From an uncultured Candidatus Bathyarchaeia archaeon (lineage in GTDB: Archaea > Thermoproteota > Bathyarchaeia > Bathyarchaeales > DTEX01): a stretch of DNA of 64,000 nucleotides. The stretch lies in NCBI GenBank assembly GCA_964465575.1, contig CAYXIF010000004.1:12212-76211 (forward strand), written 5' to 3'. Shown in pieces: positions 4,585-43,870 of the stretch. The position numbers and the translations under genes were made by a program. The number at the start of each line of letters is the position of its first letter. The first letter of the stretch is position 1. The notes beneath the pieces are model-generated. The model was not told where the DNA came from, searched no databases, and saw only the letters and a list, made by a program, of their open reading frames with translations.

Positions 4585-5505
4585 ATGCAGGATTCGACTA
4601 GGCTTAGAGCAGAGATCGGGGGGTTAAGCCTCAGCAATCCCACAATTCTTTCTTCGGGAATCCTGGGTACGTCATCGGACTTGTTAAGGCGGGTAGCTCG
4701 AGCCGGAGCAGGCGCGGTCACCACAAAATCTGTCGGGCTGAAAGCTCGCAGGAGCTACCAAAACCCAACAGTAATCCAAGTTGAGGGTGGACTGCTCAAT
4801 GCTCTGGGGCTGCCGAATCCCGGCATTCACGAGTTCGCCGAAGAGATCAGAGAACTGCATGATCTTGAGGTTCCATTGATCGTCAGCATCTATGGCTTCT
4901 CTGCTGAGGAGTACGCTGAGGTTGCAGCCGTCGCAGCAGACTCAGGCGCTGATGCATTGGAGCTCAATCTCTCATGTCCGCACGTGAAGGGAGCGGGAGC
5001 TGAGATCGGACAGAACCCCCAGACGATAAGCGAAGTCACAGAGAAAGTGAAAGACACGGTGGACGGGCCTGTCTTCGTCAAGCTGACCCCCAACGTGACC
5101 GACATTACGACGCTGGCCAGAGCAGCAGCCATGGTCGGCGCAGACGCTATCACGGCCATTAACACGGTCAAGGCGATGGCAATAGACATCGAGACTGCGA
5201 AGCCGATTTTGGCAAATAAGATTGGCGGGCTTTCAGGCGGAGCCATAAAACCCATCGCCGTCAGGTGCGTGTACGAGATCTATGAGGCCACGGACATTCC
5301 AGTTATTGGATGTGGAGGGATTAGAACATGGAGAGACGCTGTCGAGTTCATGTTGGCCGGAGCTTCGGCAGTCCAGATTGGTTCAGCCATAGCTTTCGAG
5401 GACTTGGCAATCTTCAATACTGTAGCGAAAGGTGTCGACTCGTACCTTGAAGGCAAAGGGCACAAGAGCGTGAAAGAGATTGTCGGGCTGGCACATAGAA
5501 GCTGA
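4585..5505 (+). CDS. pyrD: Dihydroorotate dehydrogenase, class 1B catalytic subunit
   Basis: MQDSTRLRAEIGGLSLSNPTILSSG N-terminus and NLSCPHVKG active-site region. The ORF-track start (4441) overlaps nop5 and precedes the TATA box, so the internal ATG at 4585 is preferred. Confidence 0.9.
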   Translation: MQDSTRLRAEIGGLSLSNPTILSSGILGTSSDLLRRVARAGAGAVTTKSVGLKARRSYQNPTVIQVEGGLLNALGLPNPGIHEFAEEIRELHDLEVPLIVSIYGFSAEEYAEVAAVAADSGADALELNLSCPHVKGAGAEIGQNPQTISEVTEKVKDTVDGPVFVKLTPNVTDITTLARAAAMVGADAITAINTVKAMAIDIETAKPILANKIGGLSGGAIKPIAVRCVYEIYEATDIPVIGCGGIRTWRDAVEFMLAGASAVQIGSAIAFEDLAIFNTVAKGVDSYLEGKGHKSVKEIVGLAHRS

Positions 5506-5509
5506 CCAG

Positions 5510-6304
5510 ATGCGCATGATTCAGATCCAGAAGGTGAAGGCCGAGGCTCCCAAGGTCAAGACCTTCTCTTTTAGGGACGAGCTCTGTTCATCAGCCGAGC
5601 CCGGCCAGTTCATCATGGTCTGGATCCCAGGGGTGGACGAGATACCGCTGAGCATCTCTTCCACTAGCAACGAGTCGTCATCTGTGACTGTGAGAGAAGT
5701 CGGAGAAGCAACCCAAGCGCTGAACGGAATGAAGAACCGCGATGTGTTCGGTGTTCGAGGACCCTTCGGCAACCCCTTCAGGATTGAGGGCAAAGAAGCC
5801 TTGGTCGTCGGCGGAGGCATTGGAACGGCGCCTCTGATGATGTTGACTACGAGGCTCCTCGCTGAGAAGGTGAAAACTACTGTCGTGGAGGGAGCAAAGA
5901 CCTGTAGCGAGCTTCTCTTTGTAGACCAGCTGAGAAACCTTGCTGTTAAGGGAGTTGCTGAAGTGATCTTGGCAACAGATGATGGCAGTTGCGGAACCAA
6001 AGGACTGGCAACCGAAGTGGCGGAGAGGTTCCTTTCCTCAAGAAAGTTCGATATCATTTATGCTTGTGGAAGCGAGGCTATGATTCGCAGAATGTACCTT
6101 CTAGCCAAGAAGCACAATACTTCCTTACAGGTGAGCTTGGAACGCGTCATGTTGTGTGCTATGGGCATCTGCGGAAGCTGTGTCATAGGAAAGTATCGGG
6201 TCTGCAAAGACGGCCCGGTCTTCGATCAGACCTGGCTGAAAGAAGTCGAGAACGAACTTGGCAAGACCAAACGCGACTTCAACGGGGGTAAGGTTCCCGT
6301 CTAA
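5510..6304 (+). CDS. pyrK: Dihydroorotate dehydrogenase electron-transfer subunit (FAD / 2Fe-2S)
   Basis: Ferredoxin-reductase-like fold motifs (GGGIGTAP) and C-terminal Cys cluster CAMGICGSCVIGKYRVCKDGPVF. ATG lies 5 nt after the pyrD stop. Confidence 0.85.
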   Translation: MRMIQIQKVKAEAPKVKTFSFRDELCSSAEPGQFIMVWIPGVDEIPLSISSTSNESSSVTVREVGEATQALNGMKNRDVFGVRGPFGNPFRIEGKEALVVGGGIGTAPLMMLTTRLLAEKVKTTVVEGAKTCSELLFVDQLRNLAVKGVAEVILATDDGSCGTKGLATEVAERFLSSRKFDIIYACGSEAMIRRMYLLAKKHNTSLQVSLERVMLCAMGICGSCVIGKYRVCKDGPVFDQTWLKEVENELGKTKRDFNGGKVPV

Positions 6305-6717
6305 GCAGTGCTTTCGCTAGTCTTGGGTTTGCTTGCTTGGCCAGTTACTGGCTTTATCTTCTTCAGATAGTCCTCAACAGCTGCACGTAGCCCATCAGCA
6401 GCCAGATTCGAGCAGTGCATTTTCACCGGAGGCAGCCCGTCCAGATTGTCAGCGACATCAGCTCTCGTTATCTTCATCGCTTCTTCGAGAGTCTTTCCTT
6501 TTGCCAGCTCAGTTACCATGCTACTTGTGGCAATCGCGGCTCCGCAGCCGAACGTCTTGAACTTTATGTCCAATATGCGATTCTTTGTGACCTTAATGTA
6601 GATGGTCATGAGGTCGCCGCAAACAGGGTTGCCGACCGTGCCAATCCCGTCGGCGTCCGGAATTTCGCCCATGTTACGTGGGTTCCTAAAGTGCTCCAGA
6701 ACTCTCTCACTATACAT
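6301..6717 (-). CDS. iscU: Fe-S cluster scaffold protein IscU/NifU-like
   Basis: Three ligand cysteines in GNPVCGD, FGCGAAIA and HCSNLA contexts. Start overlaps the iscS-like stop. Confidence 0.9.
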   Translation of the reverse strand: MYSERVLEHFRNPRNMGEIPDADGIGTVGNPVCGDLMTIYIKVTKNRILDIKFKTFGCGAAIATSSMVTELAKGKTLEEAMKITRADVADNLDGLPPVKMHCSNLAADGLRAAVEDYLKKIKPVTGQASKPKTSESTA

Positions 6718-7895
6718 TATGCGATCAGCCCCTTCGGTGTCAACGGCGAGATCAACCTCAACCTCCTCACTATTCCAGGCAACAAGTCAGCCACGTAGTC
6801 AACGTCTTCCTTGGTGTTCCCCTTTCCAAGGGTGAAGAGGAGTGAGCCATGCGCTTCCTCATGCTTCAAACCTGTCGCCAAGAGAACGTGAGAAGGCTCC
6901 AAGGTCTTTGATGTGCACGCTGAACCAGAGGAGCAGGATACTCCTTCCATGTCTAAGCTGAGTATCAGAGACTCGCCTTCAATGTAGCTGAAACGGACGT
7001 TGACATTATTGGGCAGGCGTCTGCTCGGGTGACCGTTCAGGTACGATTCAGGGACTTTGTCGAGAATCACCCCGATGAACCTGTCCCTTAGCTTTGCCAA
7101 CCTGTCGGCTTCATATCCGATTTCAGATCCCGTGATCTCTGCTGCTCTGCCCATACCCACTATCCCTGGAAGGTTCTCGGTTCCGGACCTTAGGCCTCGT
7201 TCTTGCCCACCCCCATGAATTAGTGGTTGGATGGGGACACCAGTCTTGATGTAAAGGGCTCCTGTCCCTCTTGGACCGTACATGTCGTTTGACGAAAGAG
7301 TGAGTAGATCGATGTTCTCTCCCAGAACGTCTATGGGTATCTGACTTGCCGCTGCCACTGCGTCAACGTGAAAGAAAGCTCCTTGGTCGTGCGCTATTCT
7401 GCCGATCTCGGCTATCTGCTGGATTGTACCTATCTCACCGTTAGCATACGCGATAGACACTAGGATCGTCTTGCTAGTGATCTCTTGCTTCAAGGTTTGA
7501 AGGTCAATAGTCCCGTACTTGTCGACTGGTAGGTAGGCGATGTCGAAACCTTGCTTGCTAAGGTCCCTGCACGCGTTGATCACCGACATGTGCTCAATCG
7601 AGCTGGTGACTATCTTGTTTCCTCTTGACTTGTTCTTTTGGGCAACGCCTTTGATAGCCAGATTGTTGCTTTCTGTTCCCCCTGAGGTGAAGATGATCTC
7701 CTCTCTTCGTTCTGCCCCAACAAGGTTCGCTATTTTTGTGCGAGCTTCGAATATAGCCTTTCGCGCCTCATCGCCAAGGGAATGCGTGGAGGACGGATTA
7801 CCATGCTTCTCGGCAAAGTAGGGTATCATAGCTTCTACAACGCGTTCATCGATAGGCATTCCTGCTGCGTGATCCATGTAGACTCTTCGCATCAT
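6717..7895 (-). CDS. iscS: IscS/NifS-family protein lacking the PLP-binding lysine (SSND in place of SGHK)
   Basis: Class V aminotransferase fold. The catalytic-loop Cys is retained (SSGSACTSKTLEPSHVL), but the Schiff-base Lys position reads DLLTLSSNDMYGPRG. Preferred start is MMRRVYMDHAAG (ATG 7895) after a GGCGG-like RBS. Confidence 0.85.
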   Translation of the reverse strand: MMRRVYMDHAAGMPIDERVVEAMIPYFAEKHGNPSSTHSLGDEARKAIFEARTKIANLVGAERREEIIFTSGGTESNNLAIKGVAQKNKSRGNKIVTSSIEHMSVINACRDLSKQGFDIAYLPVDKYGTIDLQTLKQEITSKTILVSIAYANGEIGTIQQIAEIGRIAHDQGAFFHVDAVAAASQIPIDVLGENIDLLTLSSNDMYGPRGTGALYIKTGVPIQPLIHGGGQERGLRSGTENLPGIVGMGRAAEITGSEIGYEADRLAKLRDRFIGVILDKVPESYLNGHPSRRLPNNVNVRFSYIEGESLILSLDMEGVSCSSGSACTSKTLEPSHVLLATGLKHEEAHGSLLFTLGKGNTKEDVDYVADLLPGIVRRLRLISPLTPKGLIA

Positions 7896-7914
7896 AGAAC
7901 CGCCATCCGCACTG

Positions 7915-8289
7915 TCAGAAGCACAGGACAGCATCAGCGTCTAGGAGTCGGTCGTTCAGTGTCGCCGCGCCCACTATCTTGGAAGCTTCCACGAAGTCTC
8001 CCCGGGACAGTCCAAGAAGCATACAGCTTTGCTCGCAGACCTCAAGCCTAACTCCGGCTTTGACCGCTTGGTCCATAACCTCCTTCAGGGACGGAAAGTC
8101 TCCCAGCTTGATCTTCTCAGCTTCACCTTTCTTGACCAACGTCACCCCTTTAATGAGAAAGTATATCGTGGCATCAATCCCCATTGCGGTAGCAGTAGTA
8201 CCGAGTATGAAAGGCGCGTAAGCCCGCTCTGGCGTATCGACACCACTCGTCTGGACATAGAGTATCTTTTTTTGACTCAAATCCTTCAA
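7915..8289 (-). CDS. DsrE/TusD-family sulfur-relay protein
   Basis: 124 aa. N-terminal ILYVQTSGVDTPERAYAPFILG alpha/beta pattern typical of DsrE/DsrF-like proteins, and conserved Cys region VCEQSC. Adjacent to tusA. Confidence 0.7.
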   Translation of the reverse strand: MKDLSQKKILYVQTSGVDTPERAYAPFILGTTATAMGIDATIYFLIKGVTLVKKGEAEKIKLGDFPSLKEVMDQAVKAGVRLEVCEQSCMLLGLSRGDFVEASKIVGAATLNDRLLDADAVLCF

Positions 8290-8292
8290 TCC

Positions 8293-8535
8293 TCATTCAG
8301 CCTTTCTTATTAGAAACCTGAGATGACTTCCATTGTCTCTAAGCTCAACCAGCTCTTGCCCAGTCCGCCTAACCAGGCTCTTTATGTCCTCCTCTGCTGC
8401 TGGGTCATCCGCAAGAACCTCTAGAACTTCGCCGACGGCAATCTTGTCCAATTCCACACGAGTTCGGAAGACTGGTTCTGGACAGTATAGCCCTATGCAG
8501 TCTAGAGTGCGGTTGGGCCTAGGGTTTGAGGGCAT
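8293..8535 (-). CDS. tusA: TusA/SirA-family sulfurtransferase
   Basis: 80 aa with the diagnostic LDCIGLYCPEPV (CPxP) motif. Confidence 0.85.
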   Translation of the reverse strand: MPSNPRPNRTLDCIGLYCPEPVFRTRVELDKIAVGEVLEVLADDPAAEEDIKSLVRRTGQELVELRDNGSHLRFLIRKAE

Positions 8536-8608: not shown

Positions 8609-9673
8609 TCACGTGTTGCCCAGAATCCTGGTGCTGAAGCCCTGCGCCTCTTCCTCGCTCTGAAGACCTTCGACTATCACTATGCCACTTCTGAGGACAC
8701 TGCCCAAACTATTCTTGGGATTACTAAAGGTCACCCCAAGGTCGCCTTTGACCTTGATCTCGTAACCTTCATGTTCAAGGGAAAGGCGCAACTTCTCCAT
8801 GTCGAGTTCGAGGGGCTTTCTTGGTGACACAAGAAAAACCCTCTTCCCTCCTCTCCCACAAAGCTCGACAACTTGCTTCCGTTGAAGCGTCATTGGTGAC
8901 CCGCGAGGTTCTGAGCCGCACACTGGGCAGTTCTCGGCCTTCTGGATATCTATCTTCTCAAAATCCATTCTACCAATATCGCAGTGAAGCATTCTCCCTT
9001 TCAGAAGCGGTTCCTTCCCGAGTATGATTCTTACAGTTTCTGAAGCTTCGACGGAAGCGACTATGCCTAGAATCGAAGGGTGAACCCCCACGACCGAGCA
9101 TTTCGGCAGCGTCTCATCATCAAGGTTGCCCTGAAAGCACTCAAGGCAAGGGGTCTTTCCGGGTATTATCGTGGACACACTACCCATCATCATAATCGCA
9201 GCTCCGAAAACGTATGGCACGTTAAGCTTCTGGCACGCTCTGTTGATAGCATAGCGCGGGGTCATGCTATCGAGCCCATCCACAACCACATCAACGTTTC
9301 TGACCAAGTCCTCAGCATTATCGACGTTCAATGCCAAGGGCAAAGGCTCAACATCTACCCTAGGGCTAAGTTCACGCAGCTTTTTCGCCGCAACCTCAAC
9401 CTTAGCATAGCCGAGCGCACCCATGTCGTAGAGAGGTTGTCTATGCAGGTTGGAAAGCTCAACGACATCGCAATCGACTAAGCGGAGATGCCCTATGCCC
9501 ATAGCAGCTAACTGTAACAAGATAGGCGACCCAAGTCCACCTAACCCAACAACGCAGACTCTTGCGTTTCTGAGTTTCAACTGTCCTTTGTAGCCCACTT
9601 CGGCGAGGACTATCTGCCGTGAGTAGAGCTCTAGCTCTGCGTATGAGAGATCATTGGTTTCGATGTTAGTCAA
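8609..9673 (-). CDS. E1-like adenylyltransferase (UbaA/MoeB/ThiF family) with an extra C-terminal domain of about 100 aa
   Basis: YSRQI, nucleotide-binding VVGLGGLGSPILLQLAAMGIG, Zn-site CLEC...CPVCG and active-site-region KCSVVGV. A 101-aa tail follows the CPVCG motif and has no rhodanese CxxxxxR motif. Confidence 0.85.
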   Translation of the reverse strand: MTNIETNDLSYAELELYSRQIVLAEVGYKGQLKLRNARVCVVGLGGLGSPILLQLAAMGIGHLRLVDCDVVELSNLHRQPLYDMGALGYAKVEVAAKKLRELSPRVDVEPLPLALNVDNAEDLVRNVDVVVDGLDSMTPRYAINRACQKLNVPYVFGAAIMMMGSVSTIIPGKTPCLECFQGNLDDETLPKCSVVGVHPSILGIVASVEASETVRIILGKEPLLKGRMLHCDIGRMDFEKIDIQKAENCPVCGSEPRGSPMTLQRKQVVELCGRGGKRVFLVSPRKPLELDMEKLRLSLEHEGYEIKVKGDLGVTFSNPKNSLGSVLRSGIVIVEGLQSEEEAQGFSTRILGNT

Positions 9674-9827: not shown

Positions 9828-10112
9828 ATGAAGGTCATAGTCAGATACTTCACAACTATGCGTGAACTAGCCGGTACCTCACAGGAAGAGATGCTGGTGG
9901 GGGAAGGCGCAACCTTGGGTGAGACTATAGAGAGATTGGCTTCGAAATACGGACAAGAGGCGCAACGCTACCTCTACTTTGAAGAGGGCAAGCTTGACCC
10001 GTCGATTCGGATTCTTGTCAACGGTACCGATGCAGGAACGTTGCTTGGCGCGGAGACCAAGCTGAGGGATGGTGATGTGGTGGCTTTAATCCCTCCGATT
10101 GGCGGAGGGTGA
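9828..10112 (+). CDS. MoaD/ThiS-family ubiquitin-like sulfur carrier / SAMP
   Basis: 94 aa, MKVIVRYFTTMRELAG... beta-grasp pattern, C-terminus ...IPPIGGG followed by stop. Divergent from the E1 gene. Confidence 0.8.
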   Translation: MKVIVRYFTTMRELAGTSQEEMLVGEGATLGETIERLASKYGQEAQRYLYFEEGKLDPSIRILVNGTDAGTLLGAETKLRDGDVVALIPPIGGG

Positions 10113-10188: not shown

Positions 10189-11115
10189 TTAAGCTAGGGT
10201 TTCTCTCGTCTTCAACATGAACTCAATCGCAGTCCTAGCCTTCGCTAGAGTCTTTGGAGGCACGTGCACCTGGTACCTTTCCTGCTTTAGGCTCTGGTGG
10301 ATCTTACCGAGCGTGTGTAGCCTCATGTTCACACATATCGCTTCTTCGTATGCTGGAATGAACACAGCATCCGGCCTTTCCTTCTTCATGCGGTGAAGTA
10401 GCCCTACTTCTGTTGCGACGATGAACTTCTTTGCCTTTGAGACTAAAGCTTCCTTGTACATTCTTGAGGTGCTACCGACAAAATCCGCAACTCTGCGCAC
10501 TTCTTGGCTGCACTCTGGATGAGCCATTACCTCGGCATCCGGGTGGATTCTCCTAAGCGCTAGTATGGTTGGTCTGTTGAAGAGCTTGTGAACCGGGCAG
10601 AAGCCACATGCAGGTATAGGTACGACCTTCTTGCTGGTGAAGTTTCGGGCGTAGTCCGCTAAGTTTGAGTCTGGTCCGAAGAGAACAGCATCTGAGTTCA
10701 TTCGATCTATGATCTCGGCTGAGTTGGCCGAGGTACAGACTGCGTCACAGAGGGCTTTGGCCTCGGCTAGACTGTTGATGTACAGGACTACCCTTGCGTC
10801 GGGATGTTTCTCTCTGTAGAAATCTACAAGGTCTGCAGGTAACATGGAAGCCATTGGGCATAGAGCATTCCTGTCGGGAATCAGGACTTTCTTGTCTGAG
10901 TTGAGAATAGCTGCTGTCTCAGCCATGAAGGTGACTCCGCAAAAGACTATGATCTTTGCTTGCGTCTGGGTCGCGCAGAGGGACAGCTCCAAGCTGTCGC
11001 CGACGAAATCAGCTATGTCTTGGACCTCCGGACGTTGGTAATTGTGGGCGAGGATGACTGCCTGTTTCTCTTTCCTTAGTTTGTGGATCTTCTGAACTAA
11101 AGCGTTAGTATCCAT
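10189..11115 (-). CDS. nadA: Quinolinate synthase
   Basis: ILAHNYQRPEVQDIADFVGDSLELS and other NadA-typical blocks. The ATG at 11115 sits 5 nt after GAGGTGA; the track start at 11124 is a GTG inside that RBS. Confidence 0.9.
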   Translation of the reverse strand: MDTNALVQKIHKLRKEKQAVILAHNYQRPEVQDIADFVGDSLELSLCATQTQAKIIVFCGVTFMAETAAILNSDKKVLIPDRNALCPMASMLPADLVDFYREKHPDARVVLYINSLAEAKALCDAVCTSANSAEIIDRMNSDAVLFGPDSNLADYARNFTSKKVVPIPACGFCPVHKLFNRPTILALRRIHPDAEVMAHPECSQEVRRVADFVGSTSRMYKEALVSKAKKFIVATEVGLLHRMKKERPDAVFIPAYEEAICVNMRLHTLGKIHQSLKQERYQVHVPPKTLAKARTAIEFMLKTRETLA

Positions 11116-11387
11116 GCATTTCACCTCTTGGCTCGGAGCCCATCTTTGTTCGGGCGATGCGTTTGACTACTAATCCAAGCACCTAGGCAAAAGGCGGACG
11201 CACAGCCAACGGACTTCATCATCATTGTCATCTTGTCGTTCTCGAATCGATCAAGTGTAAAGTGACAGCACAATCAAGAATAAATTCTTTACCATTCAAG
11301 TTCCGCAGCCTAAGCCAACCCACGGCAACCATTTTGCTAGCAACCTATTTATGACAAAAAGCGTTCAGATAGCATAGGATTGCCCAG

Positions 11388-17894: not shown

Positions 17895-18392
17895 ATGAAA
17901 GATCAGTCTGCGGGACCAAAGCTTAAGAAAGCACCATGGCTATCTCAGGTGTGCGTGAGACCGATGCCGATACAGTACTCAGAGGCGCAAGATGTCAAGC
18001 AACTAGTTGATGAGATCACAGAGATCCTAGACCTTTACCATGTTGTTCCTCAGTTCGTTTACTGCGTTCGCAGCAAGGGTTCTCGATCCACCCGCACTAT
18101 AGCCCGCATTCACGGTTTAGGGAAGATATGGCAAGAGGCTCTTCGCCGCCCGCCTTCCTACGCGATTGAGGTCATTTCAGAACAGTATGACATGCTGGGC
18201 GAGGGAGAGAAAGAGAAAACGTTGATCCATGAGCTCCTTCACATACCAAAAGGGTTCAAGGGAGGCTTCAGACCACACAAAGGCCTTGTTGACCAAAAAT
18301 CTGTGGAGAGTCTCTTCAGGAGACTGCAGGAACAAAGGACGATCAGAAGGCGAAACGACAAGGAACACCAAGATTCAGAGTTGCATCCGTAG
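17895..18392 (+). CDS. Predicted zinc metallopeptidase (HExxH)
   Basis: 165 aa with LIHELLHIPKGFKGGFRPH. Resembles small archaeal predicted metallopeptidases; the family was not verified. Confidence 0.45.
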   Translation: MKDQSAGPKLKKAPWLSQVCVRPMPIQYSEAQDVKQLVDEITEILDLYHVVPQFVYCVRSKGSRSTRTIARIHGLGKIWQEALRRPPSYAIEVISEQYDMLGEGEKEKTLIHELLHIPKGFKGGFRPHKGLVDQKSVESLFRRLQEQRTIRRRNDKEHQDSELHP

Positions 18393-21046: not shown

Positions 21047-24000
21047 TTGTCGTTGAACAAGAGGGATGTCAGTTACTGCGAGGATTGCTTGGTCGTCTGC
21101 GGCCAAGACGTGTACGTTTATGGCGGAGAGATCCACTACTTCAGGATTCCGAACGAGCTCTGGCTGGACCGTCTTTTGAAAGCCAAACGGTGCTTTTTGA
21201 ACACAATAGGGGCTTACGTGGCTTGGAACTGGCACGAGGAAAAGGAAGGTGTGTTCGACTTTTCTGGAGACCATGACCTAGACCGCTTCCTCGAGATATG
21301 CAAGGAATTGGGTCTCTATGTAATAGTGCGTCCTGGTCCCTATATCTGTGCGGAATGGGATGGAGGAGGGTTTCCGGCATGGATCTGGACCAAGAAGATG
21401 GCATATAGATCCACAGACCCAGCATTCCTAGGACAAATCTCAAGATGGTATGATATGATCTGTCCGATCGCAAGGAGACACCTTGTCACACAGGGAGGAT
21501 CCACGATACTCTTCCAGATTGAGAATGAATACTTCTGGGGCAACGTTCCCTACCTTCTTAGAATGGCTGAGATTGCCAAGGAAAGGGGGATCACTGTTCC
21601 CATAGTTCATAACGTTGACAGGCCTTTGCGAGGAACCAACGTGATAGACTCGCTAGACTTCTATCCCTCCGTGTGGCAGATAGAAGGAGTGCAGACAGGC
21701 ATCGACTTGCTTATAGAAGAGCAACCCGGCAAGCCTCCGATCGTCATGGAGCTAGAAGGCGGATGGTTCTCGGTATTTGGCGGATCACTGCCTACAGCTA
21801 GAGGTAGCTTCCCCGCAGAGTGGACTGACATACTAGCCAAGACCTGTATAGCCAAGGGCATAAACGGGATAAACTTCTATATGTTTCACGGTGGAACCAA
21901 CTTCGGATACTGGACGGCAAAGGGCATAACGACAACCTACGACTGCGAAGCTGCCGTTCGAGAATGGGGTGAGCTCGGCGAACGTTACTGGGTCGTGAGA
22001 CTTATCGGCGGGTTCCTCAAGTCATTCGGCAATATTCTAGTTCACTGCAAGCCTGCCGAAGGGCTCGTGGAATCATCGAACAATAATGTCGATGTATTCT
22101 GCAGAGAAGGCGAGAGAGGCTCGTTCATATTCGTCAGAAACATGGGGGAAGATGCCGGGTCAGTGAGACTTAGGACATCCCTAGTCGAGTTCGGTGAGAT
22201 CCCAGTTGAAGGAAGCATCCATCTGACGCCAAGATCGATGCTCGCATTGCCCGTCAACTGCTATCTTCGGAAGCCTGAGGCAACACTAGCCTACTCGACA
22301 TCGCAAGTCTTCCTGATTACAGAGATGAAGGACCGCACAGTTCTCGTTTTGTATGGATCGAAAGGCACACAAGGTGAGCTGTGCCTTAGGCTTGAAGAGA
22401 AACCTGTGGTTGTGGGCGACATAAGGCATGAATGGAATAGCAGACATAAGGTACTTCGGCTTAATTATGTTCATCCAGATACCGAGAAGGTCTTTTTGGT
22501 TCGACTTAGAGCGCCCCTTGAGCTTATCATAACCAACGAAGAGAGAGCGGCCAGAACTTGGCTTCCCTGCTTCGGTGACGAGGAGATGCCGATGGTCTCG
22601 AACCTTTACTTCCTGAGGGAGTGGGAAGTCCGAGACCAGTCTATCAGCCTCCTCGCTGAGCTCGAGCCGCAAAAGCGAACGGAAATCAGCATAGTTGTAC
22701 CCAGAAAGGTACGAGATGTAATGGTGAATGTGCGCAGAATCGGCTTCTCCCATGACAAAGACACCTCTATCCTTTCGTTCTCCCTTACCACTAAAGAGTC
22801 ACCGAACTTAGTCCAGAACCTGAACGGTACATGGAAAGCAAGAGCTGAACTCTTAGCAAAAGAGGTCGACTATGACCATTCTCAATGGCAGAGTTGGATT
22901 CCTGGAATGCCGCTAGAAGCTTTAGGCTACATGAAGAACGGGTACTCTTGGTATAGGTGCGCGTTCAAAGCGCCTCAAACGATGAAGAACGCGGTTCTTA
23001 GCATTCCCGAGATAAGGGATTGCGGAATAGTTTTCGTTAACGGCAAGTTTGTCGGAAAAGGAATAGGGAAGATCTCAGTAGATATTGGGGACACATTGAA
23101 GAAAGACGAAGAAAACGTGCTTGCAATCTGTGTTGAAAGTGTCGGGCACTGCAACATTCCCTGCCTGACAAAGGATGGCAACGGAATTCTATCTCCTGTG
23201 TATCTTTCAGAGGAGGAGAAGGTTGAACTGAGGGACTGGAAGCTCAGGATCGCCTCGGTTGAGATGAAGCCAGGGCTCCCAACTTCGATTGACGTTTCCC
23301 GAATGCTCATGAACAACGAAACCCCAGAGGAAGTCTTGCCCATCACAAATGACAGGGAATGGGAAACCCTCATGATCTCCTCCCCGGAAGAGCTGACCAA
23401 GAGATTCTCAGCTGAAGCAGATCGGCTCAAGATTCTCTGGCTCCGAGCTTGGGTGCGCATCCCAAAGAAGCATAAAGGGAAGTCCGCAGTTCTGAGTCTT
23501 AAGAACATGAGGCCTGGAACATACAAGCTCTACGTCAATGGTGCCGTCAGATCTTTTTCGAGCTGGACCATGAGTGCATCTGGTTTGGCAGGGACGGTTG
23601 ACATCGACATAACCGAATCAGTAAAGCTGGGGGAACCAAACCTTCTAGCTTTGGCCCTTTACACAATGAATGCTCTCCCAACACCCTTGCCCCGAAGCTT
23701 TCCCGAACTAGTCATCTACGGTCACAGAATCGAGGGAGATTGGAAGGTAACAGAAGGCTTACATGGTGAACGCGAAAAGTGGTTCTCACCTGAACTAGAC
23801 GACTCAGACTGGGAAGAGGTCCAAGCTTTCAGGTTACAGAAAGATCTAAGGTCACCTTTCAACGGGATCATCTGGTATAGGAAGAGATTCAGACTCAAAG
23901 GCGATCCGGAGTATGTCGCTCCCCTAAGGCTCACTCTCAATGAGGTCAAGTCGAAGTGCCTGATATATCTGAACGGGCATTTGGTCGGACGATATGCCGA

Positions 24001-24166
24001 TATCGGTCCTCAGAAAGATTTCTACTTGCCAGAGCCTTGGCTGAAGCAAGAGAACGTACTTGCATCAGCTGTTGAGTGCTTCGAAAGAGACGGAATGACT
24101 GGTGACATAGTAGTCTCGCCTTACTACGTTAGGGAAAAGGCGGAAATCAGAATCGAACTGGGATGA
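21047..24166 (+). CDS. Glycoside hydrolase family 35 beta-galactosidase, large multidomain, no signal peptide
   Basis: GH35 blocks YVAWNWHEEKEGVFDFSG, RPGPYICAEWDGGGFPAW and FQIENEY, followed by about 650 aa of beta-sandwich-like C-terminal sequence. Confidence 0.85.
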   Translation: MSLNKRDVSYCEDCLVVCGQDVYVYGGEIHYFRIPNELWLDRLLKAKRCFLNTIGAYVAWNWHEEKEGVFDFSGDHDLDRFLEICKELGLYVIVRPGPYICAEWDGGGFPAWIWTKKMAYRSTDPAFLGQISRWYDMICPIARRHLVTQGGSTILFQIENEYFWGNVPYLLRMAEIAKERGITVPIVHNVDRPLRGTNVIDSLDFYPSVWQIEGVQTGIDLLIEEQPGKPPIVMELEGGWFSVFGGSLPTARGSFPAEWTDILAKTCIAKGINGINFYMFHGGTNFGYWTAKGITTTYDCEAAVREWGELGERYWVVRLIGGFLKSFGNILVHCKPAEGLVESSNNNVDVFCREGERGSFIFVRNMGEDAGSVRLRTSLVEFGEIPVEGSIHLTPRSMLALPVNCYLRKPEATLAYSTSQVFLITEMKDRTVLVLYGSKGTQGELCLRLEEKPVVVGDIRHEWNSRHKVLRLNYVHPDTEKVFLVRLRAPLELIITNEERAARTWLPCFGDEEMPMVSNLYFLREWEVRDQSISLLAELEPQKRTEISIVVPRKVRDVMVNVRRIGFSHDKDTSILSFSLTTKESPNLVQNLNGTWKARAELLAKEVDYDHSQWQSWIPGMPLEALGYMKNGYSWYRCAFKAPQTMKNAVLSIPEIRDCGIVFVNGKFVGKGIGKISVDIGDTLKKDEENVLAICVESVGHCNIPCLTKDGNGILSPVYLSEEEKVELRDWKLRIASVEMKPGLPTSIDVSRMLMNNETPEEVLPITNDREWETLMISSPEELTKRFSAEADRLKILWLRAWVRIPKKHKGKSAVLSLKNMRPGTYKLYVNGAVRSFSSWTMSASGLAGTVDIDITESVKLGEPNLLALALYTMNALPTPLPRSFPELVIYGHRIEGDWKVTEGLHGEREKWFSPELDDSDWEEVQAFRLQKDLRSPFNGIIWYRKRFRLKGDPEYVAPLRLTLNEVKSKCLIYLNGHLVGRYADIGPQKDFYLPEPWLKQENVLASAVECFERDGMTGDIVVSPYYVREKAEIRIELG

Positions 24167-26038: not shown

Positions 26039-26980
26039 TCATTGCTGCTTCAGTCTGTGCAGCAATTGACAGGTTTGACATGTCATCCCTGTCGTGGGTT
26101 CGCCACAGGTTTTGCACTTCTTCAGTGACATGTTCTTGGCTGTTCTTTTGACTGCTTTCCGGATCCTTTCCGTTGAGCTGTAGGTCGTGTACTTCGTGCC
26201 CGGATGCTTCTCTTCGAGTCTATTCAGAATACGGCGCACGTCGTTTCTCAGTGCGTCTGCGGCATATGGGCAAGGCATCTCTTGGAATGGTATATGCTTC
26301 AGATGGGCATAAAAAGCGACCTCTCTCTCAAGGACTTCGCTCATGGGTTTCACTCTTGGGACGACGCTCGCTTCTGCCAAGTCGGACACAGACTCAGACC
26401 TGAATATTCTGGACGAGTCTCCATGGATAATGTTCAGAAGGAAGGTTTGCACTTCGTCATCCAAATTATGAGCTGTGGCGATCTTGTCTGCTTTAGCTTC
26501 TCGTGCTGCAATGTTTAGAGCTCGTCGTCTCAGGACGCCGCAGTAGGCGCAAGGCGTGAGCCTTCTGCCTTTTGTTTTCTCTACCACACCGTCCATAGTG
26601 CATCCAAAGAGCTCCTTGAAAGACACGATGATATGCTCGACGCCGAGATCTGCGCAGTTTCTCGCCGCTATCCCTATGGCTTCGTCCCGGTAGCCCGCTA
26701 TCCCCTCATCGACAGTGATGGCGCACAACGAAACCTTCGGAAAGCTCTGTTCAATCTTGGACAGAATATGTAGGAGGCTGACGCTGTCTTTTCCTCCTGA
26801 GACTGCAATAGCTATCCTGTCGTCGATCTCAAACATATCATACTTGCCGATTGTAGTCCGAACCTTTCCCTCGACAGACCGGAGGAAACACCTCTTGCAG
26901 AGCCTCTCCCCGGAGTGACGACGGGCGTAGATGGGCTCTATCCGTATGCATACTGAACACCTAATCATGCTCCTTTCCAT
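26039..26980 (-). CDS. tRNA 2-thiolation PP-loop ATPase (NcsA/Ncs6/TtuA family)
   Basis: N-terminal CSVC...CKRC, PP-loop SGGKDS and C-terminal CKTCGEPTTGMTCQTC zinc fingers. Confidence 0.85.
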   Translation of the reverse strand: MERSMIRCSVCIRIEPIYARRHSGERLCKRCFLRSVEGKVRTTIGKYDMFEIDDRIAIAVSGGKDSVSLLHILSKIEQSFPKVSLCAITVDEGIAGYRDEAIGIAARNCADLGVEHIIVSFKELFGCTMDGVVEKTKGRRLTPCAYCGVLRRRALNIAAREAKADKIATAHNLDDEVQTFLLNIIHGDSSRIFRSESVSDLAEASVVPRVKPMSEVLEREVAFYAHLKHIPFQEMPCPYAADALRNDVRRILNRLEEKHPGTKYTTYSSTERIRKAVKRTAKNMSLKKCKTCGEPTTGMTCQTCQLLHRLKQQ

Positions 26981-27942: not shown

Positions 27943-28842
27943 TCACGCAAGGATATCGTGAAGGAAAACTTTCATAGGACCAAACTTCCCGCCATAGTTG
28001 CCTGCCGATATTCTGACGATGCCTGGAACCTTAACTGCAACTCTTATGCCTTCAGCCATGGCTTTCTTGATACAGTCTAAGTTAAGCCCGTTTACCACGA
28101 TCTCGTAAACGCTGTTGGCGTCCTTGGGAACCAAGCTATCGGGGATCTTCTCTTTAAGTTTGGGACAGAAGGGATGATTTGTTGAAGCTGGAAGCTTGTA
28201 CTTTAAAGACCCAACCTTTGAGCCAGACCTACAGACTCCGCCCGGGAAGGGCATGATCACGCCTTCCACTTTGCTGCGGATCGACTCGACAGCTTCCTCT
28301 GCTGCTTTGAGCCCTGATGGCATGTCCTTGGCGAAGATGAGAAAGTTTCCTCCAGCGACTGCTTTTGCCGTGCCGAAGCTGCTTTCAACGATGAACTCAC
28401 CCTCCATCACTGGGATACGCCAGACCGTTCTGCCCGCAAGCTCGTCTTTCTTCTGGAAACCATCGCCAAAGAAGCGGAGGCTTCTGCCTACCTTCAATCT
28501 CCGAGTAGCCTTGGGCAGACCGTTAAAGGCCGCTGTTGTGGGGCAAGTCATCACGCACTGGCCGATCCTCGCGATCATCTGCTTCTTGAGGTCCCTTCGG
28601 CTAGTGTGGTATATCTGGATAAGAGTACCAATCCTGCCATCTGGAGTTTCGCTGGCAGGCACAAGGCGTTCTATGCCCGCCTCAGCTGGTGAGCCTATGA
28701 TTGATGAGCCGTACCCTGTGGCGACCTTGGCCGCTGTCAAGGCCCACTTCTCGTTCTGAGCGGTTATCAAAACCCTCCCAACCCACATTTCAAAGAGCTC
28801 TGCGAACGTGTCTTCAACCTCGACGCCATTAAGATCAAACAT
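27943..28842 (-). CDS. ftr: Formylmethanofuran:tetrahydromethanopterin N-formyltransferase
   Basis: MFDLNGVEVEDTFAELFEMWVGRVLITA...ETPDGR closely follows the Ftr N-terminal pattern. ATG 28842 follows a GAGGTG RBS; the track start is 28893. Confidence 0.9.
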   Translation of the reverse strand: MFDLNGVEVEDTFAELFEMWVGRVLITAQNEKWALTAAKVATGYGSSIIGSPAEAGIERLVPASETPDGRIGTLIQIYHTSRRDLKKQMIARIGQCVMTCPTTAAFNGLPKATRRLKVGRSLRFFGDGFQKKDELAGRTVWRIPVMEGEFIVESSFGTAKAVAGGNFLIFAKDMPSGLKAAEEAVESIRSKVEGVIMPFPGGVCRSGSKVGSLKYKLPASTNHPFCPKLKEKIPDSLVPKDANSVYEIVVNGLNLDCIKKAMAEGIRVAVKVPGIVRISAGNYGGKFGPMKVFLHDILA

Positions 28843-29005
28843 ATGCCGCACCTCAGCGATACGTACCCTGGATCCGCTAGATTCATGACACAACTTTGGC
28901 GTAATGGTACGTGCGCCAACCTTTTAAGTTTAGTGACGTGGAAAAGTATCGTAAAGCTGAAGTACTCAGAGTCACATATTGTCCGTTGGGAGCGTCTCAA
29001 CCTTT

Positions 29006-30382: not shown

Positions 30383-30766
30383 TTGAAAGTCTTAGTCGTG
30401 ACTGGAAGGACGATAGATCAGGGCTGCGGGAAGGAGTCTGGTAAGCTCTCAGAAGAATACATGGGCAACGTTGCTCTCTGCGAGATAAACCCAGAAGACA
30501 TGGACAAGCTCAAGATACGAGACGGCGGAAACGTAAAGGTTACTACTAGATACGGCTCAGTCGTAGTTAGAGCGAAGAAATCACGGAGAACAAGAACTCC
30601 TAGCACCGTCTTCATTCCTTACGGTCCATGGACTAACACGGTCTTTGCATCAGCGACTAACGCCACGGGCATGCCCTTGCTAAAAGGTGTGGAGGCGGAT
30701 ATCGAGGCCACAGATGAAAAGATTCTGACTCTGCACGAACTCCTCAACCAGTCATATAGCAAGTGA
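30383..30766 (+). CDS. fwdD: Formylmethanofuran dehydrogenase subunit D
   Basis: 127 aa molybdopterin-dinucleotide-binding-type barrel (LVVTGRTIDQG...GNVKVTTRYGSVVVRA). GTGA overlap with fwdB. Confidence 0.8.
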   Translation: MKVLVVTGRTIDQGCGKESGKLSEEYMGNVALCEINPEDMDKLKIRDGGNVKVTTRYGSVVVRAKKSRRTRTPSTVFIPYGPWTNTVFASATNATGMPLLKGVEADIEATDEKILTLHELLNQSYSK

Positions 30767-32229
30767 AGGCATTCTGGAAGGGACCATCATTGCCGGTTGT
30801 GTCCGGGGTTGTCTGTCCCGTCTGTGGATGTTGCTGCGACGATATCGAAGTAACCGTAGAAAACGAACGAATAGTCGAAGTAAGAAACGCCTGCGCCATG
30901 GGTGCAGCGAAATTCGAGAGCTTTGGCAACCACCGGAACACAACTCCCCTCGTTAGGAAGAACGGAAAGCTCGTTGAAGCTTCGCTTGACGAATCCATAG
31001 CAAAGGCAGCGGAGATTCTCGCAAAGGCTTCTTACCCTATTCTCTATGGTTGGAGCTCAACCAGTTGCGAAGCCATAAGAACTGGCTTAGAGTTGGCTGA
31101 ACAGGTGGGTGGCCTCATAGACAACACTTCGACGATCTGTCACGGCCCGTCGATTCTCGCCGTGCAAGATGTGGGCTTGCCGGCGTCCACTCTAGGGCAA
31201 ATACGGCACCGAGCGGACCTCATCATATACTGGGGAAGCAACCCTTGGAGTGCCCACCCTCGCCACATGGAGAGATACACTGCTCTTACCGAAGGAAGGT
31301 TCCAGAAGAGCGTCTGGAGAGGACTTCTGCTCCGTGTGCAAGCAAGCTCAATCAGCAAGAGAATCCTGAGAGTCGCCGAGCTAGTTCTTAAGCGCGGCTC
31401 CCATCGCTTGCCTTCCGATGTGAGCGCACCTCAACAGGCTCTCTCAGCAGAAGAGAGAAAGGTAATCGTCGTGGATGTTCGAAGAACACGTTCAGCCGAC
31501 CTAGCCAACTACTTCGTCCAAGTCGAGCCTGGGAAAGACTTTGAAGTTCTTCAAGCGCTTCGAGCACTGGTCAGGGACGAAGAGCTCGATGCCGAAGAAG
31601 TCGGGGGAGTTCCAGTCGAAACCCTTGAAGAGATAGCTGAGGCTATGGTCAACTGCAGGTTTGGCGTTATCTTCTTCGGACTGGGACTCACAATGAGCCG
31701 CGGGAGAAACCGCAACGTTGAAGCAGCGATCAGGTTGGCTAGAGACCTGAACAAGCGGACGAAATTCCTCATCATGCCCATGAGGGGACACTTCAACGTC
31801 GCTGGAGCGGACACTGTCTTCACCTGGCAGACAGGTTACCCATACGCTGTCGACTTCTCCCATGGTTACCCTCGCTACAACCCCGGAGAGACCTCGGCTG
31901 TCGACGTGCTGAGCCGTGGAGACTCGGACGCGGCGCTTGTTGTAGCATCCGATCCCGTCTCAAACTTCCCTAGGGAGGCTGTGGCCAATCTGGTCAGAAA
32001 GGAATTGATAGTTGTTGATCCTCATCTTTCCGCCACAGCATTGATGGCTGACGTAGTGATCCCGTCAGCCCTTGTAGGGATTGAGGCTGAAGGAACGGCC
32101 TACAGAATGGATCACGTCCCGCTGCCGCTGAAGAAAATCGTTGATCCACCTGAAGGCTGTCCACCAGACGAGAAGATACTGGGCATGATACTGAACGAAG
32201 TACGACGAATCAAGAACTCGGAAATCTGA
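30763..32229 (+). CDS. fwdB: Formylmethanofuran dehydrogenase subunit B (Cys-type) with an internal insertion
   Basis: N-terminal VCPVCGCCCDDIEV cluster, TICHGPS (Cys ligand region), YWGSNPWSAHPRHM and EAEGTAYRMD blocks. 488 aa. Confidence 0.85.
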   Translation: MKAFWKGPSLPVVSGVVCPVCGCCCDDIEVTVENERIVEVRNACAMGAAKFESFGNHRNTTPLVRKNGKLVEASLDESIAKAAEILAKASYPILYGWSSTSCEAIRTGLELAEQVGGLIDNTSTICHGPSILAVQDVGLPASTLGQIRHRADLIIYWGSNPWSAHPRHMERYTALTEGRFQKSVWRGLLLRVQASSISKRILRVAELVLKRGSHRLPSDVSAPQQALSAEERKVIVVDVRRTRSADLANYFVQVEPGKDFEVLQALRALVRDEELDAEEVGGVPVETLEEIAEAMVNCRFGVIFFGLGLTMSRGRNRNVEAAIRLARDLNKRTKFLIMPMRGHFNVAGADTVFTWQTGYPYAVDFSHGYPRYNPGETSAVDVLSRGDSDAALVVASDPVSNFPREAVANLVRKELIVVDPHLSATALMADVVIPSALVGIEAEGTAYRMDHVPLPLKKIVDPPEGCPPDEKILGMILNEVRRIKNSEI

Positions 32230-35602: not shown

Positions 35603-36283
35603 GTGAGCATTTTGCCGCTCAAGATTGACCTTCACGTTCATACGAGCTACTCTCACGACTGCCTGACAAGCCTCGATAGCGTGATCTCTTTTGCACAGAA
35701 ACGACGCTTAAACGGTGTTTCCATAGCAGATCATGATACAATTGAAGGCGCTCTAAGACTCCTAGAGATGGCGGGCACAGGGTTGATCATAATCCCAGGG
35801 ATCGAGGTGTCAACAAGCCAAGGGCACCTACTGGGCATCAATGTTACCACGCCAATCCCTCGGGGACTTAGCATAGTGGAAACCGCTGCCAGAATACACG
35901 AAGCCGGCGGTATTGCTGTCGCTGCTCACCCGTCTTCGCCATTCAAACATGCTATAGGCCTTGACGAACGACTCATCTCATACGGTGTGGACGCGGTTGA
36001 GACTGTCAATTCAACGAATTTCCCGTTCTTTCTACTGAACTACTTGGACAAGCGGCTCGCCAGACGCACAGGGCTTCCGGTGACTGGAGGAAGCGACGCC
36101 CACTTACCTGAGGCCATAGGACTAGGCTACACTTTGATAGATGAAACGGGAACTGAAACAGACATTGACGCTGTGGTCCAAGCCATCAAGAGGGGAAGGT
36201 GCGTTCCCATTGGTAGGCCAATGCCGTGGAGACTGAGGCTGCGGAAGATTACACTAATGAGCAGTAAGCCTCCTGCGCACTAG
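35603..36283 (+). CDS. PHP-domain metal-dependent phosphoesterase
   Basis: IDLHVHTSYSHDC, ADHDT and GGSDAH motifs. Confidence 0.75.
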   Translation: MSILPLKIDLHVHTSYSHDCLTSLDSVISFAQKRRLNGVSIADHDTIEGALRLLEMAGTGLIIIPGIEVSTSQGHLLGINVTTPIPRGLSIVETAARIHEAGGIAVAAHPSSPFKHAIGLDERLISYGVDAVETVNSTNFPFFLLNYLDKRLARRTGLPVTGGSDAHLPEAIGLGYTLIDETGTETDIDAVVQAIKRGRCVPIGRPMPWRLRLRKITLMSSKPPAH

Positions 36284-37380: not shown

Positions 37381-37528
37381 CCTTTTCCCTTCCCCATAGC
37401 TCCATGGCAATCAAGTCCCTGATGGCCACGCGGATAGCTTCCGCTCTATGCGGATAGTACCGCTTGTTCACCAGCTCCTCGAGTGCCTCCAAGTATGGTT
37501 CGGGAAGATATATTGTGATGAGTTTCAC
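37364..37528 (-). CDS. Small ribbon-helix-helix (CopG/CdrS-like) DNA-binding protein, overlaps ftsZ start
   Basis: Not in ORF track (54 aa). Own translation from GTG 37528, with GGTGAG RBS at 37531-37537: VKLITIYLPEPYLEALEELVNKRYYPHRAEAIRVAIRDLIAMELWGREKDDKDS. Classic RHH pattern (beta strand ITIYLP, then two helices). Stop TGA at 37364-37366, 17 nt inside ftsZ. Confidence 0.65.
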   Translation of the reverse strand: MKLITIYLPEPYLEALEELVNKRYYPHRAEAIRVAIRDLIAMELWGREKDDKDS

Positions 37529-39162: not shown

Positions 39163-39516
39163 CTACTTGTTGACTGTTTGGTTGATCTCCTCCTCGATAA
39201 TGTGACCGTGGCAGTAGACGAGAGCCTTCTTGACGCCCTCGATGTTCTCTGCTCTGCTCTTTACCTCGATCGCCATCTTTGTCGCGTCTGTGCAGATGGG
39301 GCTTGAGAGCGTGAAGTCAATTCTGACGACCCCTGGTTGGATCTCCTTGACGCTTTGGACCATTTCCATCTGGCCAAAGGTTAGCCCTGTCTCGAGGTCG
39401 ACCACCTTCTCTACCTCAGCTAGAACTTTGCTCTCAAGGTCCTTCATCAGTTCTTCACGCAACTCAGGAGCTTCAAGATGGGTACGCAACAGATTGTTGT
39501 GGAGAATAGGGGTCAC
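39163..39516 (-). CDS. DUF59/MIP18-family Fe-S assembly-related protein
   Basis: 117 aa. VVDLETGLTFGQMEMVQSV...VRIDFTLSSPIC resembles the DUF59 (SufT/PaaD-like) core. Confidence 0.5.
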   Translation of the reverse strand: MTPILHNNLLRTHLEAPELREELMKDLESKVLAEVEKVVDLETGLTFGQMEMVQSVKEIQPGVVRIDFTLSSPICTDATKMAIEVKSRAENIEGVKKALVYCHGHIIEEEINQTVNK

Positions 39517-43811: not shown

Positions 43812-43870
43812 ACAAGATGCCTCCAATTCTCTACTTTCATGATAGAAGGTGCTTTTATCCCTGACGAGTC

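Follow-up and report, generated by a model that had tools for sequence, protein, structure and literature searches.

In Escherichia coli IscS, Lys206 holds pyridoxal 5'-phosphate (PLP) as an internal aldimine (PMC2854127). The IscS protein of Archaeoglobus fulgidus has an aspartate, Asp199, in place of this lysine, carries pyridoxamine 5'-phosphate (PMP), and has no desulfurase activity; it has been crystallised with either PMP or PLP, and restoring the lysine (D199K) does not bring activity back (PMC8918507). The protein has been proposed to act solely as a scaffold partner that lends a single Cys to the [2Fe-2S] cluster of IscU as a ligand (PMC8918507, PMC7585200). Sulfide has been hypothesised as the sulfur source of the A. 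fulgidus IscS-IscU pair, and how that pair acquires sulfur is an acknowledged open question (PMC8918507). The catalytic lysine is reportedly absent from IscS1 of Methanosarcina acetivorans as well (PMC7585200; for the MIS system, see PMC13066941). Lys-to-Asp forms of IscS have been in the literature since 2012-2015, and one more of them in an uncultured archaeon is not news. Here, such a gene is examined in a 64,000-nucleotide stretch (the window) of an uncultured Candidatus Bathyarchaeia archaeon (assembly GCA_964465575.1, contig CAYXIF010000004.1), where the minus-strand gene order is ThiF-type E1, TusA, DsrE, IscS, and IscU, the last at the operon end. Taken as a whole, the locus is probably best explained by a Lys-less IscS/MisS-type protein that, like A. 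fulgidus IscS2, is a non-desulfurase partner of IscU. What the present analysis adds is a large clade under strong selection, in which the loss is confined to seven pocket positions and TusA, often together with DsrE, is fixed alongside, as well as a recurrence of the pairing with TusA in a second Lys-less family in bacteria.

The Schiff-base position and the active-site pocket

The best match of the window protein in the PDB is A. fulgidus IscS2 (AF_0564; 4EB5, 4EB7, 4HVK; E 9e-143, 58% identity over 379 residues), and other IscS and NFS1 entries match at 1e-101 to 1e-108. The start codon is probably the ATG at 7892, which gives 391 amino acids and matches all homologues as well as the gene-caller choice, rather than the ATG at 7934; the longer open reading frame (6717..7934, minus strand), which includes IDLLTLSSNDMYGPRGTGALYI and SSGSACTSKTLEPSHVL, would give 405 amino acids and make the aspartate residue 217. 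Read base by base, minus-strand positions 7295..7284 are TCG TCA AAC GAC, that is S-S-N-D, so that the first-pass annotation of this DNA was exact in placing a GAC codon at 7284-7286. Its claim that this aspartate stands at the PLP Schiff-base position is likewise borne out. In a MAFFT alignment of the window protein with E. coli K-12 IscS (translated from NC_000913.3), A. fulgidus IscS2, and the Lys-bearing PDB chain 9wep, the motif region is gapless and places Asp on E. coli Lys206 and Asn on His205, with no lysine of the window protein at the Schiff-base position. HMMER independently pairs the SSND of the window with SAHK in 9wep, SSND in 4EB5, and SSNK in the D199K variant 4R5F. No substitute lysine occurs in the alignment within six residues of Asp203. 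A misalignment or a nearby replacement lysine can thus be excluded. The cysteine block of the catalytic loop, which the annotation had called intact, indeed reads SSGSAC with Cys326, and the A. fulgidus counterpart of this residue, Cys321, ligates the [2Fe-2S] cluster in 4EB5.

Of the characters of a type I cysteine desulfurase, the window protein has the class-V aminotransferase fold and sequence and the nucleophilic loop Cys; it lacks the Schiff-base Lys, the invariant pocket residues, and scores at the level of the NCBIfam equivalogs, with 510.8 bits against TIGR03402 (NifS; cut-off 530.75) and 429 against TIGR02006 (IscS; cut-off 643.2). Its relatives are labelled "cysteine desulfurase NifS" in databases, and metabolic reconstructions that took over this automatic label would credit Bathyarchaeia and their relatives with too much cysteine-dependent sulfur mobilisation.

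The missing lysine is not an isolated change. In the window protein, Gly152, Ala180, Asn202, and Leu352 stand in place of E. coli N155, Q183, H205, and R354, and E. coli T12/T13 are replaced by G and M. In an unbiased column scan, a position was picked if its conservation reached 85% or more among 134 Lys-bearing representatives (50%-identity clusters) and if no more than 10% of 82 members of the clade retained it. Just seven positions qualified, namely T12, T13, N155, Q183, H205, K206, and R354, while all other conserved columns, C328, H104, and D180 among them, are kept in the Lys-less clade. In the Lys-bearing representatives, N155, Q183, H205, R354, and T12/T13 are 86-99% conserved. The seven changed positions presumably lie around the O3' and phosphate of PLP and around the carboxylate of the substrate, with R354 taken to bind the latter; for Lys206, the published role is that of holding PLP (PMC2854127). 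Judged by sequence, this is a selective removal of putative catalytic and substrate-binding residues from an otherwise strongly conserved protein. Because the Schiff-base Lys and the cysteine-substrate residues are lost, no persulfide would be made from cysteine, and the earlier proposal that the protein does not mobilise sulfur from cysteine is strongly favoured by the joint absence of Lys, R354 (Leu), Q183 (Ala), and N155 (Gly).

Residues of the window protein that are kept include Thr73, His101, Asp177, Ser200, and Thr238 (391-residue numbering), and in E. coli numbering T76, H104, D180, S203, T243, and C328. The ring- and phosphate-binding residues would thus remain, which fits non-covalent B6 binding as in A. 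fulgidus. The retention of T76, H104, D180, S203, and T243, together with the crystallisation of the A. fulgidus protein with PMP or PLP (PMC8918507), could also be taken to indicate some other B6-dependent catalysis, with non-covalent PLP or PMP and a substrate other than cysteine. Such catalysis is very improbable, since every Lys-less lineage has lost R354, plus N155, Q183, and T12/T13, and since no activity was found for the A. fulgidus protein, for which D199K brought no rescue.

The changes described above are shared by a large group of relatives. The 1176-nucleotide gene is identical at the nucleotide level across four independent assemblies (ERR12264624, ERR12264623, SRR9661762, JGI 3300031898), which excludes a sequencing error, the concern for which the annotation had advised a check of the reads. 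Among the 120 closest database homologues (at least 72% identity), of which the named ones are Bathyarchaeia or Hadarchaeia, the motif is SSND in 109, SAND in 7, SSNS in 2, and SSNN in 1, and SSGSACTS is kept in 119. A further set of loci came from GTDB, where each species was represented by a single genome and two peptide patterns derived from the clade matched up to 472 loci; counts over 80 relatives given here and below refer to the best 80 of these 472 (63-75% identity, nearly all labelled Bathyarchaeia or Hadarchaeia). All 80 are Lys-less (SSND 78, SAND 1, SSNN 1) and all 80 keep the SSGSAC loop. Asp is retained in 79, and the codon at this position is GAC in 68, GAT in 11, and AAC in 1, within 32 distinct versions of the 12-nucleotide motif. 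Synonymous GAC/GAT variation at a fixed Asp is, as read from these codons, a signature of selection for Asp. Protein identity across Bathyarchaeia, Hadarchaeia, and Archaeoglobi is 58-78%.

These data bear on the notion that the protein is a degenerating, redundant paralogue, that is, a functionless pseudo-enzyme, or else an artefact of sequencing or alignment. The absence of the catalytic lysine and an NCBIfam NifS score just under its cut-off are what one would cite for it. The conservation data refute it, and the probability left to it is negligible: the DNA is the same in four assemblies, the protein is maintained at the above identities across three archaeal classes, Asp persists through GAC and GAT, the Cys loop is invariant, the seven pocket positions alone differ, and IscU and TusA are conserved as operon partners.

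Linkage to TusA and DsrE and a proposed route of sulfur

IscU is found downstream of IscS in 77/80 relatives. Upstream linkage was counted in those 70 of the 80 clade loci whose sequence extends 1 kb or more upstream, and TusA lies directly upstream in 67 of them, with DsrE between TusA and IscS in 42. As a control, 80 metagenome loci of the nearest Lys-bearing relatives were used, 59 of which had enough upstream sequence; TusA or DsrE occurred within 2.5 kb in one of the 59, so that the TusA linkage of 67/70 versus 1/59 gives a Fisher p of 8e-32, with the TusA and DsrE profiles used on the controls having been built from clade loci. The carrier cysteines are themselves conserved, TusA Cys18 (CPxP) in 100% of the clade and DsrE Cys82 in 96% of orthologues. 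One Lys-bearing control, L170 (Ga0078972_1000022, 4965-7483), is the sole one with IscU-TusA-DsrE behind IscS; its Q183 is replaced by Leu, and it could be an intermediate between the canonical and the Lys-less modules. Named relatives show the same arrangement with variations: Ferroglobus placidus has TusA-IscS-IscU, a metagenome-assembled genome (MAG) labelled Thaumarchaeota has TusA-DsrE-IscS-IscU, and A. fulgidus has DsrE-IscS2-IscU, where the DsrE is 66% identical to that of the window. This A. fulgidus DsrE is called as 94 amino acids, a stop codon interrupting the expected N-terminus. In searchable open-access literature no description of a link between TusA/DsrE and a Lys-less IscS was found, which is not proof of absence.

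A comparable linkage recurs outside this clade. Of 150 representatives at 50% identity, 16 are without the Lys and have D, A, S, G, P, T, Q, M, or R instead; most of the 16 also lose Q183 and R354 and keep C328. Several of them group with the Asp clade, as does the window protein in a neighbour-joining tree, while P0183, P0188, and P0266 have Lys-bearing proteins as their nearest relatives. A search with P0183 retrieved a family with SAQQ, SADQ, AGNQ, or SAHQ motifs (K to Q or P), whose named members are from Nitrospirota, Chloroflexi, and Archaeoglobaceae. TusA is adjacent in 4/5 inspected loci of this second family. With IscS* denoting the Lys-less protein, the order is IscS*-TusA in a Nitrospirae MAG (P0408) and in Nitrospira defluvii (P0429), Rrf2-TusA-IscS*-IscU in an Archaeoglobaceae MAG (P0436), and IscS*-IscU-(Zn ribbon)-DsrE-TusA in a Chloroflexi MAG (P0430); TusA is absent near P0183. 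The Chloroflexi locus also contains a canonical Lys-bearing NifS, which lies beside NadA and 2 kb from the Lys-less IscS-IscU-DsrE-TusA set. Since the canonical and Lys-less forms coexist there with different partners, a canonical enzyme elsewhere does not make a Lys-less one a degenerate copy; this speaks further against decay of the window gene, and it invalidates the suggestion of the first-pass annotation that a canonical desulfurase elsewhere in the genome would mark the window protein as a degenerate paralogue. Among isolated IscS-like representatives, P0131, P0190, P0238, P0246, and P0266 are closest to Lys-bearing proteins but carry M, T, S, or R in place of the Schiff-base lysine, and R354 is kept in part of this set; they may represent additional independent losses or simply errors.

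The E1 gene of the window shows no such linkage. ThiF or ThiS occurs within 8 kb of IscS in 2/80 relatives. The E1-TusA-IscS adjacency is lineage-specific, and the E1/SAMP pair can be excluded as a conserved part of the unit. The annotation had counted E1 among the flanking genes of a relay, and this part of its reading is not supported, as the adjacency is conserved for TusA and DsrE and not for E1. The same counts bear on the idea that IscS* is a hub that passes TusA/DsrE sulfur outward to an E1/SAMP thiocarboxylate or to other acceptors. E1 and ubiquitin-like (Ubl) genes do adjoin in the window and near A. fulgidus IscS2, and E. coli IscS serves several acceptors via the same Cys loop (PMC2854127). 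A hub of this kind is nonetheless improbable given an E1/SAMP linkage of 2/80 set against an IscU linkage of 77/80, and an E1 that has neither a rhodanese domain nor a recognisable IscS-binding module.

TusA and DsrE are carriers of cysteine persulfide or thiosulfonate, that is, of sulfane sulfur, and free S2- would have to be oxidised before it could load a cysteine persulfide. Their conserved linkage therefore points to S0, polysulfide, thiosulfate, or oxidised sulfide rather than to free S2-. This matters for the first-pass reading of the flanking genes as a sulfide-fed rather than cysteine-fed relay: "not cysteine-fed" is well supported, while "sulfide-fed" stands on the A. fulgidus hypothesis and is not what the carriers indicate. 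The explanation closest to that reading is one in which free sulfide loads IscU, IscS lends a Cys ligand only, and TusA, DsrE, E1, and SAMP form a separate, co-located, sulfide-fed relay for tRNA thiolation or molybdenum cofactor (Moco). Sulfide is the proposed source for the A. fulgidus pair (PMC8918507), and Methanococcus uses sulfide, not cysteine, for both Fe-S clusters and tRNA thiolation (PMC5372739). In addition, an E1, a SAMP-like Ubl, and an NcsA-like PP-loop protein are all in the window, and A. fulgidus has a ThiS-ThiF-TusA-DsrE-TusA set 6-8 kb upstream of IscS2 (L091, AE000782.1, 45-3241). That set is followed by a 380-residue Pyr_redox_2 flavoprotein, which could be a sulfide- or persulfide-handling oxidoreductase. 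Against a direct supply of sulfide stand the chemistry of the carriers, which hold sulfane sulfur on cysteine, and the linkage counts (E1/SAMP near IscS in 2/80, TusA in 67/70), by which TusA belongs with the Fe-S pair and not with E1. Moreover, in Thermococcus kodakarensis a desulfurase is replaced by S0 or polysulfide and not by sulfide (PMC12442378). On balance this explanation is unlikely, if less so than the hub.

The reading preferred here, a non-desulfurase partner of IscU, can be extended to a route for sulfur. From the A. fulgidus homologue we infer that the window protein would lack desulfurase activity, form a complex with IscU, and provide a Cys ligand. It would most likely assemble with IscU, to which it is translationally coupled, into an (IscS-IscU)2 complex, in which the IscS loop Cys326 would be the fourth ligand, or the transfer arm, for a nascent [2Fe-2S] cluster. 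The co-transcribed TusA, with DsrE where present, would load non-cysteine sulfane sulfur onto the IscS loop cysteine, from which sulfur would move to IscU; the step from TusA to IscS would be the reverse of the IscS-to-TusA trans-persulfidation of E. coli. Conserved synteny makes such a TusA/DsrE to IscS loop Cys to IscU sulfane relay a tentative proposal, one that is somewhat more apt to be wrong than right. The wider proposal is equally provisional: a widespread four-part Fe-S module, TusA-(DsrE)-IscS*-IscU, that would span Bathyarchaeia, Hadarchaeia, and Archaeoglobi and have a counterpart in Nitrospirota and Chloroflexi, and in which a former desulfurase would possibly serve as a pure persulfide-shuttling arm.

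The interface between IscS and TusA offers one view on this relay. The nearest solved relative of window TusA is E. coli TusA (PDB 1DCJ, 3LVJ; 2e-12), which was crystallised with IscS. Among the TusA residues that face IscS according to the E. coli complex (PMC2854127), E21, R27, D45, and D51 are strongly conserved, and R31 is replaced by D in 71/73. On the IscS side, the clade has R55 in 80/80, R237 in 66/80, an acidic residue at position 52 in 65/80, and a basic residue at position 49 in 39/80, and the contact positions W45, E49, and D52 are variable. The pattern is faintly suggestive of the relay.

Several observations weigh against the reading as a whole or against the relay. The inactivity of the window protein is extrapolated from a 58%-identical homologue, and binding of TusA to IscS as well as the direction of sulfur transfer are predictions. 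The A. fulgidus protein binds PMP or PLP non-covalently and H104, D180, T76, S203, and T243 are kept here, such that the protein may have a cofactor-dependent role. E. coli IscS contacts are not kept: W45 is D, Q, or N, and D52 is Phe in the window. DsrE is absent from about 40% of clade loci, the Lys-less locus of P0183 is without TusA, and the Lys-bearing IscS of L170 also has TusA-DsrE downstream, which means that the linkage is not exclusive. Lastly, the controls come from metagenome contigs whose taxonomy is unknown.

Neighbouring genes in the window

The annotation had named TusA, DsrE, and E1 as the flanking genes, and profile matches confirm all three, along with IscU and a ThiS/SAMP-type protein. 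Positions of these and other features are collected in the table below.

Features of the 64-kb window, with positions counted from its first nucleotide
Feature	Position	Strand	Remarks
Lys-less IscS/MisS-type gene	6717..7892	minus	391 aa; Pfam PF00266 E 1e-77, full length; PDB 4EB5 E 9e-143
S-S-N-D motif	7284..7295	minus	stands where canonical type I desulfurases have S-G/A-H-K
Asp203 codon GAC	7284..7286	minus	Schiff-base Lys position; E. coli Lys206, A. fulgidus Asp199
Asn202	7287-7289	minus	E. coli H205
Ala180	7353-7355	minus	E. coli Q183
Gly152	7437-7439	minus	E. coli N155
Leu352	6837-6839	minus	E. coli R354
Mobile Cys loop S-S-G-S-A-C	6915..6932	minus	Cys326 codon 6915-6917; E. coli Cys328, A. 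fulgidus Cys321
IscU/MisU scaffold	6301..6717	minus	138 aa; Pfam NifU_N 2.7e-48; TIGR03419 203 bits, cut-off 187.9
DsrE-family sulfur carrier	7915..8289	minus	121-124 aa; Pfam DsrE 1.2e-18; PDB 3MC3 9e-16
TusA sulfur carrier	8293..8535	minus	80 aa; G-L-Y-C18-P-E-P motif; Pfam TusA 3.6e-23
ThiF/MoeB/UbaA-type E1 adenylyltransferase	8609..9673	minus	354 aa; Pfam ThiF 6.7e-72; 73 nt upstream of TusA
C-terminal extension of E1	8609-8911	minus	about 100 aa, residues ~255-354
ThiS/MoaD/SAMP-type Ubl sulfur carrier	9828..10112	plus	Pfam ThiS 1.6e-18; divergent from E1 gene
NadA (quinolinate synthase)	10189-11124	minus	[4Fe-4S] enzyme
Small open reading frame	17895-18392	plus	matches putative phage metallopeptidase family
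GH35 beta-galactosidase	21047-24166	plus	1039 aa; galactose-binding domains
NcsA/TtuA-like PP-loop tRNA 2-thiolation protein	26039..26980	minus	Pfam ATP_bind_3; NCBIfam NcsA 239 bits, below cut-off; TIGR00269 passes
Methanogen-type C1/cofactor genes	27943-28893	minus	
Methanogen-type C1/cofactor genes	30383-32229	plus	
Methanogen-type C1/cofactor genes	43053-43826	minus	
FtsZ/tubulin-family paralogue	36280-37410	minus	
FtsZ/tubulin-family paralogue	40268-41329	minus	
MtaB-like radical-SAM methylthiotransferase	37750-39126	plus	
DUF59/SufT-like FeS_assembly_P protein	39163-39516	minus	
MobA-like transferase	42408-43034	plus	

The start of IscU overlaps the stop of IscS by 1 nucleotide (TAATG), DsrE is 22 nucleotides upstream of IscS, and the TusA-DsrE spacing is 3-12 nucleotides. 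The cluster ligands of IscU are all present (Cys33, Asp35, Cys58, His101, and Cys102). Residues ~96-100 of IscU form an LPPVK motif, which we take to be the HscA-binding motif of bacterial IscU, although the operon is without HscAB, IscA, or Fdx accessory genes. In other Lys-less modules, an open reading frame of 47-63 amino acids is often found 3' of IscU (L009 9546-9689, L010 9555-9725, L177 6591-6782), and in the Chloroflexi locus it is a zinc ribbon; the window has no such gene, and PyrK converges on IscU instead.

A SAMP/Urm1-type set is present in the window, consisting of the ThiF-type E1, a Ubl that ends in Gly-Gly (IGGG; TIGR01687 72.4 bits, cut-off 49.5; SAMP1 66.1, cut-off 60), and a PP-loop thiolase with an NcsA score below cut-off. 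The last of these, which lies outside the operon, likely consumes SAMP thiocarboxylate. The C-terminal extension of E1 gave no Pfam, NCBIfam, or PDB match and is not a rhodanese. A phmmer search of six-frame open reading frames of at least 50 amino acids in the window found no second class-V aminotransferase, SufB, or SufD. Pfam scans of most of the larger open reading frames found no rhodanese, SQR, or DsrC, and no TusE/DsrC or MnmA was present in the scanned ones of at least 70 amino acids, which were all but about a dozen of 60 selected frames.

NadA follows the Ubl gene, beside the sulfur-gene cluster. A Lys-bearing IscS/NifS directly adjoins NadA in several other loci (L103, L104, L144, and L177), an adjacency that recalls the NifS-NadA donor-acceptor pair of Bacillus subtilis (PMC13066941). 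Further window genes for sulfur, Fe-S, or Moco functions encode an MtaB-like radical S-adenosylmethionine (SAM) methylthiotransferase, a DUF59/SufT-like protein, and a MobA-like transferase. The methanogen-type genes encode Ftr (formylmethanofuran:tetrahydromethanopterin formyltransferase), a split molybdopterin oxidoreductase that is possibly Fwd-like, and F420-0:gamma-glutamyl ligase. The two FtsZ/tubulin-family paralogues are less than 5 kb apart. The GH35 and phage-metallopeptidase-like genes are unusual neighbours for an archaeal housekeeping region.

Comparison with described sulfur-transfer and Fe-S systems

Among systems that share the carriers, the DsrE3A-TusA thiosulfonate/persulfide carriers of sulfur-metabolising archaea and bacteria presumably come close, in that a similar small, single-domain Cys DsrE is paired with TusA. 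They reportedly feed dissimilatory sulfur oxidation (Hdr-like or Dsr). The window pair, in contrast, stands beside an Fe-S scaffold and in organisms that are not known as sulfur oxidisers. With the MisS-MisU core of MIS, the window shares a two-gene IscS-IscU unit in an anaerobic archaeon, without HscAB, IscA, or Fdx. The definition of MIS, however, includes an active desulfurase (IscS2 of M. acetivorans depends on PLP), whereas the window IscS is probably inactive, and TusA and DsrE are unmentioned as MIS components in the accessible MIS papers.

E. coli IscS has the same fold as the window protein and 45% identity to it, and IscU is adjacent in both. Canonical desulfurases have Lys206, His205, Gln183, Asn155, Arg354, and Thr12/13, all of which are missing from the window IscS, and the Lys-less clade is TusA-linked whereas Lys-bearing relatives are not. 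The E. coli IscS-TusA-TusBCD-TusE-MnmA relay has the IscS, TusA, and DsrE/TusD families in common with the window, and both carriers keep their cysteine. In E. coli the genes are unlinked, and the persulfide formed by IscS passes to TusA; in the complex, IscS Cys328-SSH is ~4 Å from TusA Cys19 (PMC2854127). In the window the genes share one operon with IscU, and its IscS, unlike that of E. coli, would be unable to make persulfide, such that sulfur would flow in reverse or be sourced elsewhere.

The closest of the described systems is that of A. fulgidus, and the Lys-to-Asp, non-desulfurase IscS that the first-pass annotation had cited from this organism is a fitting precedent (PMC8918507, PMC7585200). 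The two proteins have SSND, K206D, H205N, Q183A, R354L, and the Cys loop in common, and the loci are alike in having IscU directly downstream (74% identity) and DsrE directly upstream. They differ in that the window protein additionally has N155G, and in that TusA and E1 share its operon while the ThiS-ThiF-TusA-DsrE-TusA set of A. fulgidus is 6-8 kb away. Synteny thus offers candidate donors for a pair whose sulfur source was left open, and these donors are testable with proteins already known to crystallise. If true, the four-part module would explain how A. fulgidus IscS-IscU gets its sulfur.

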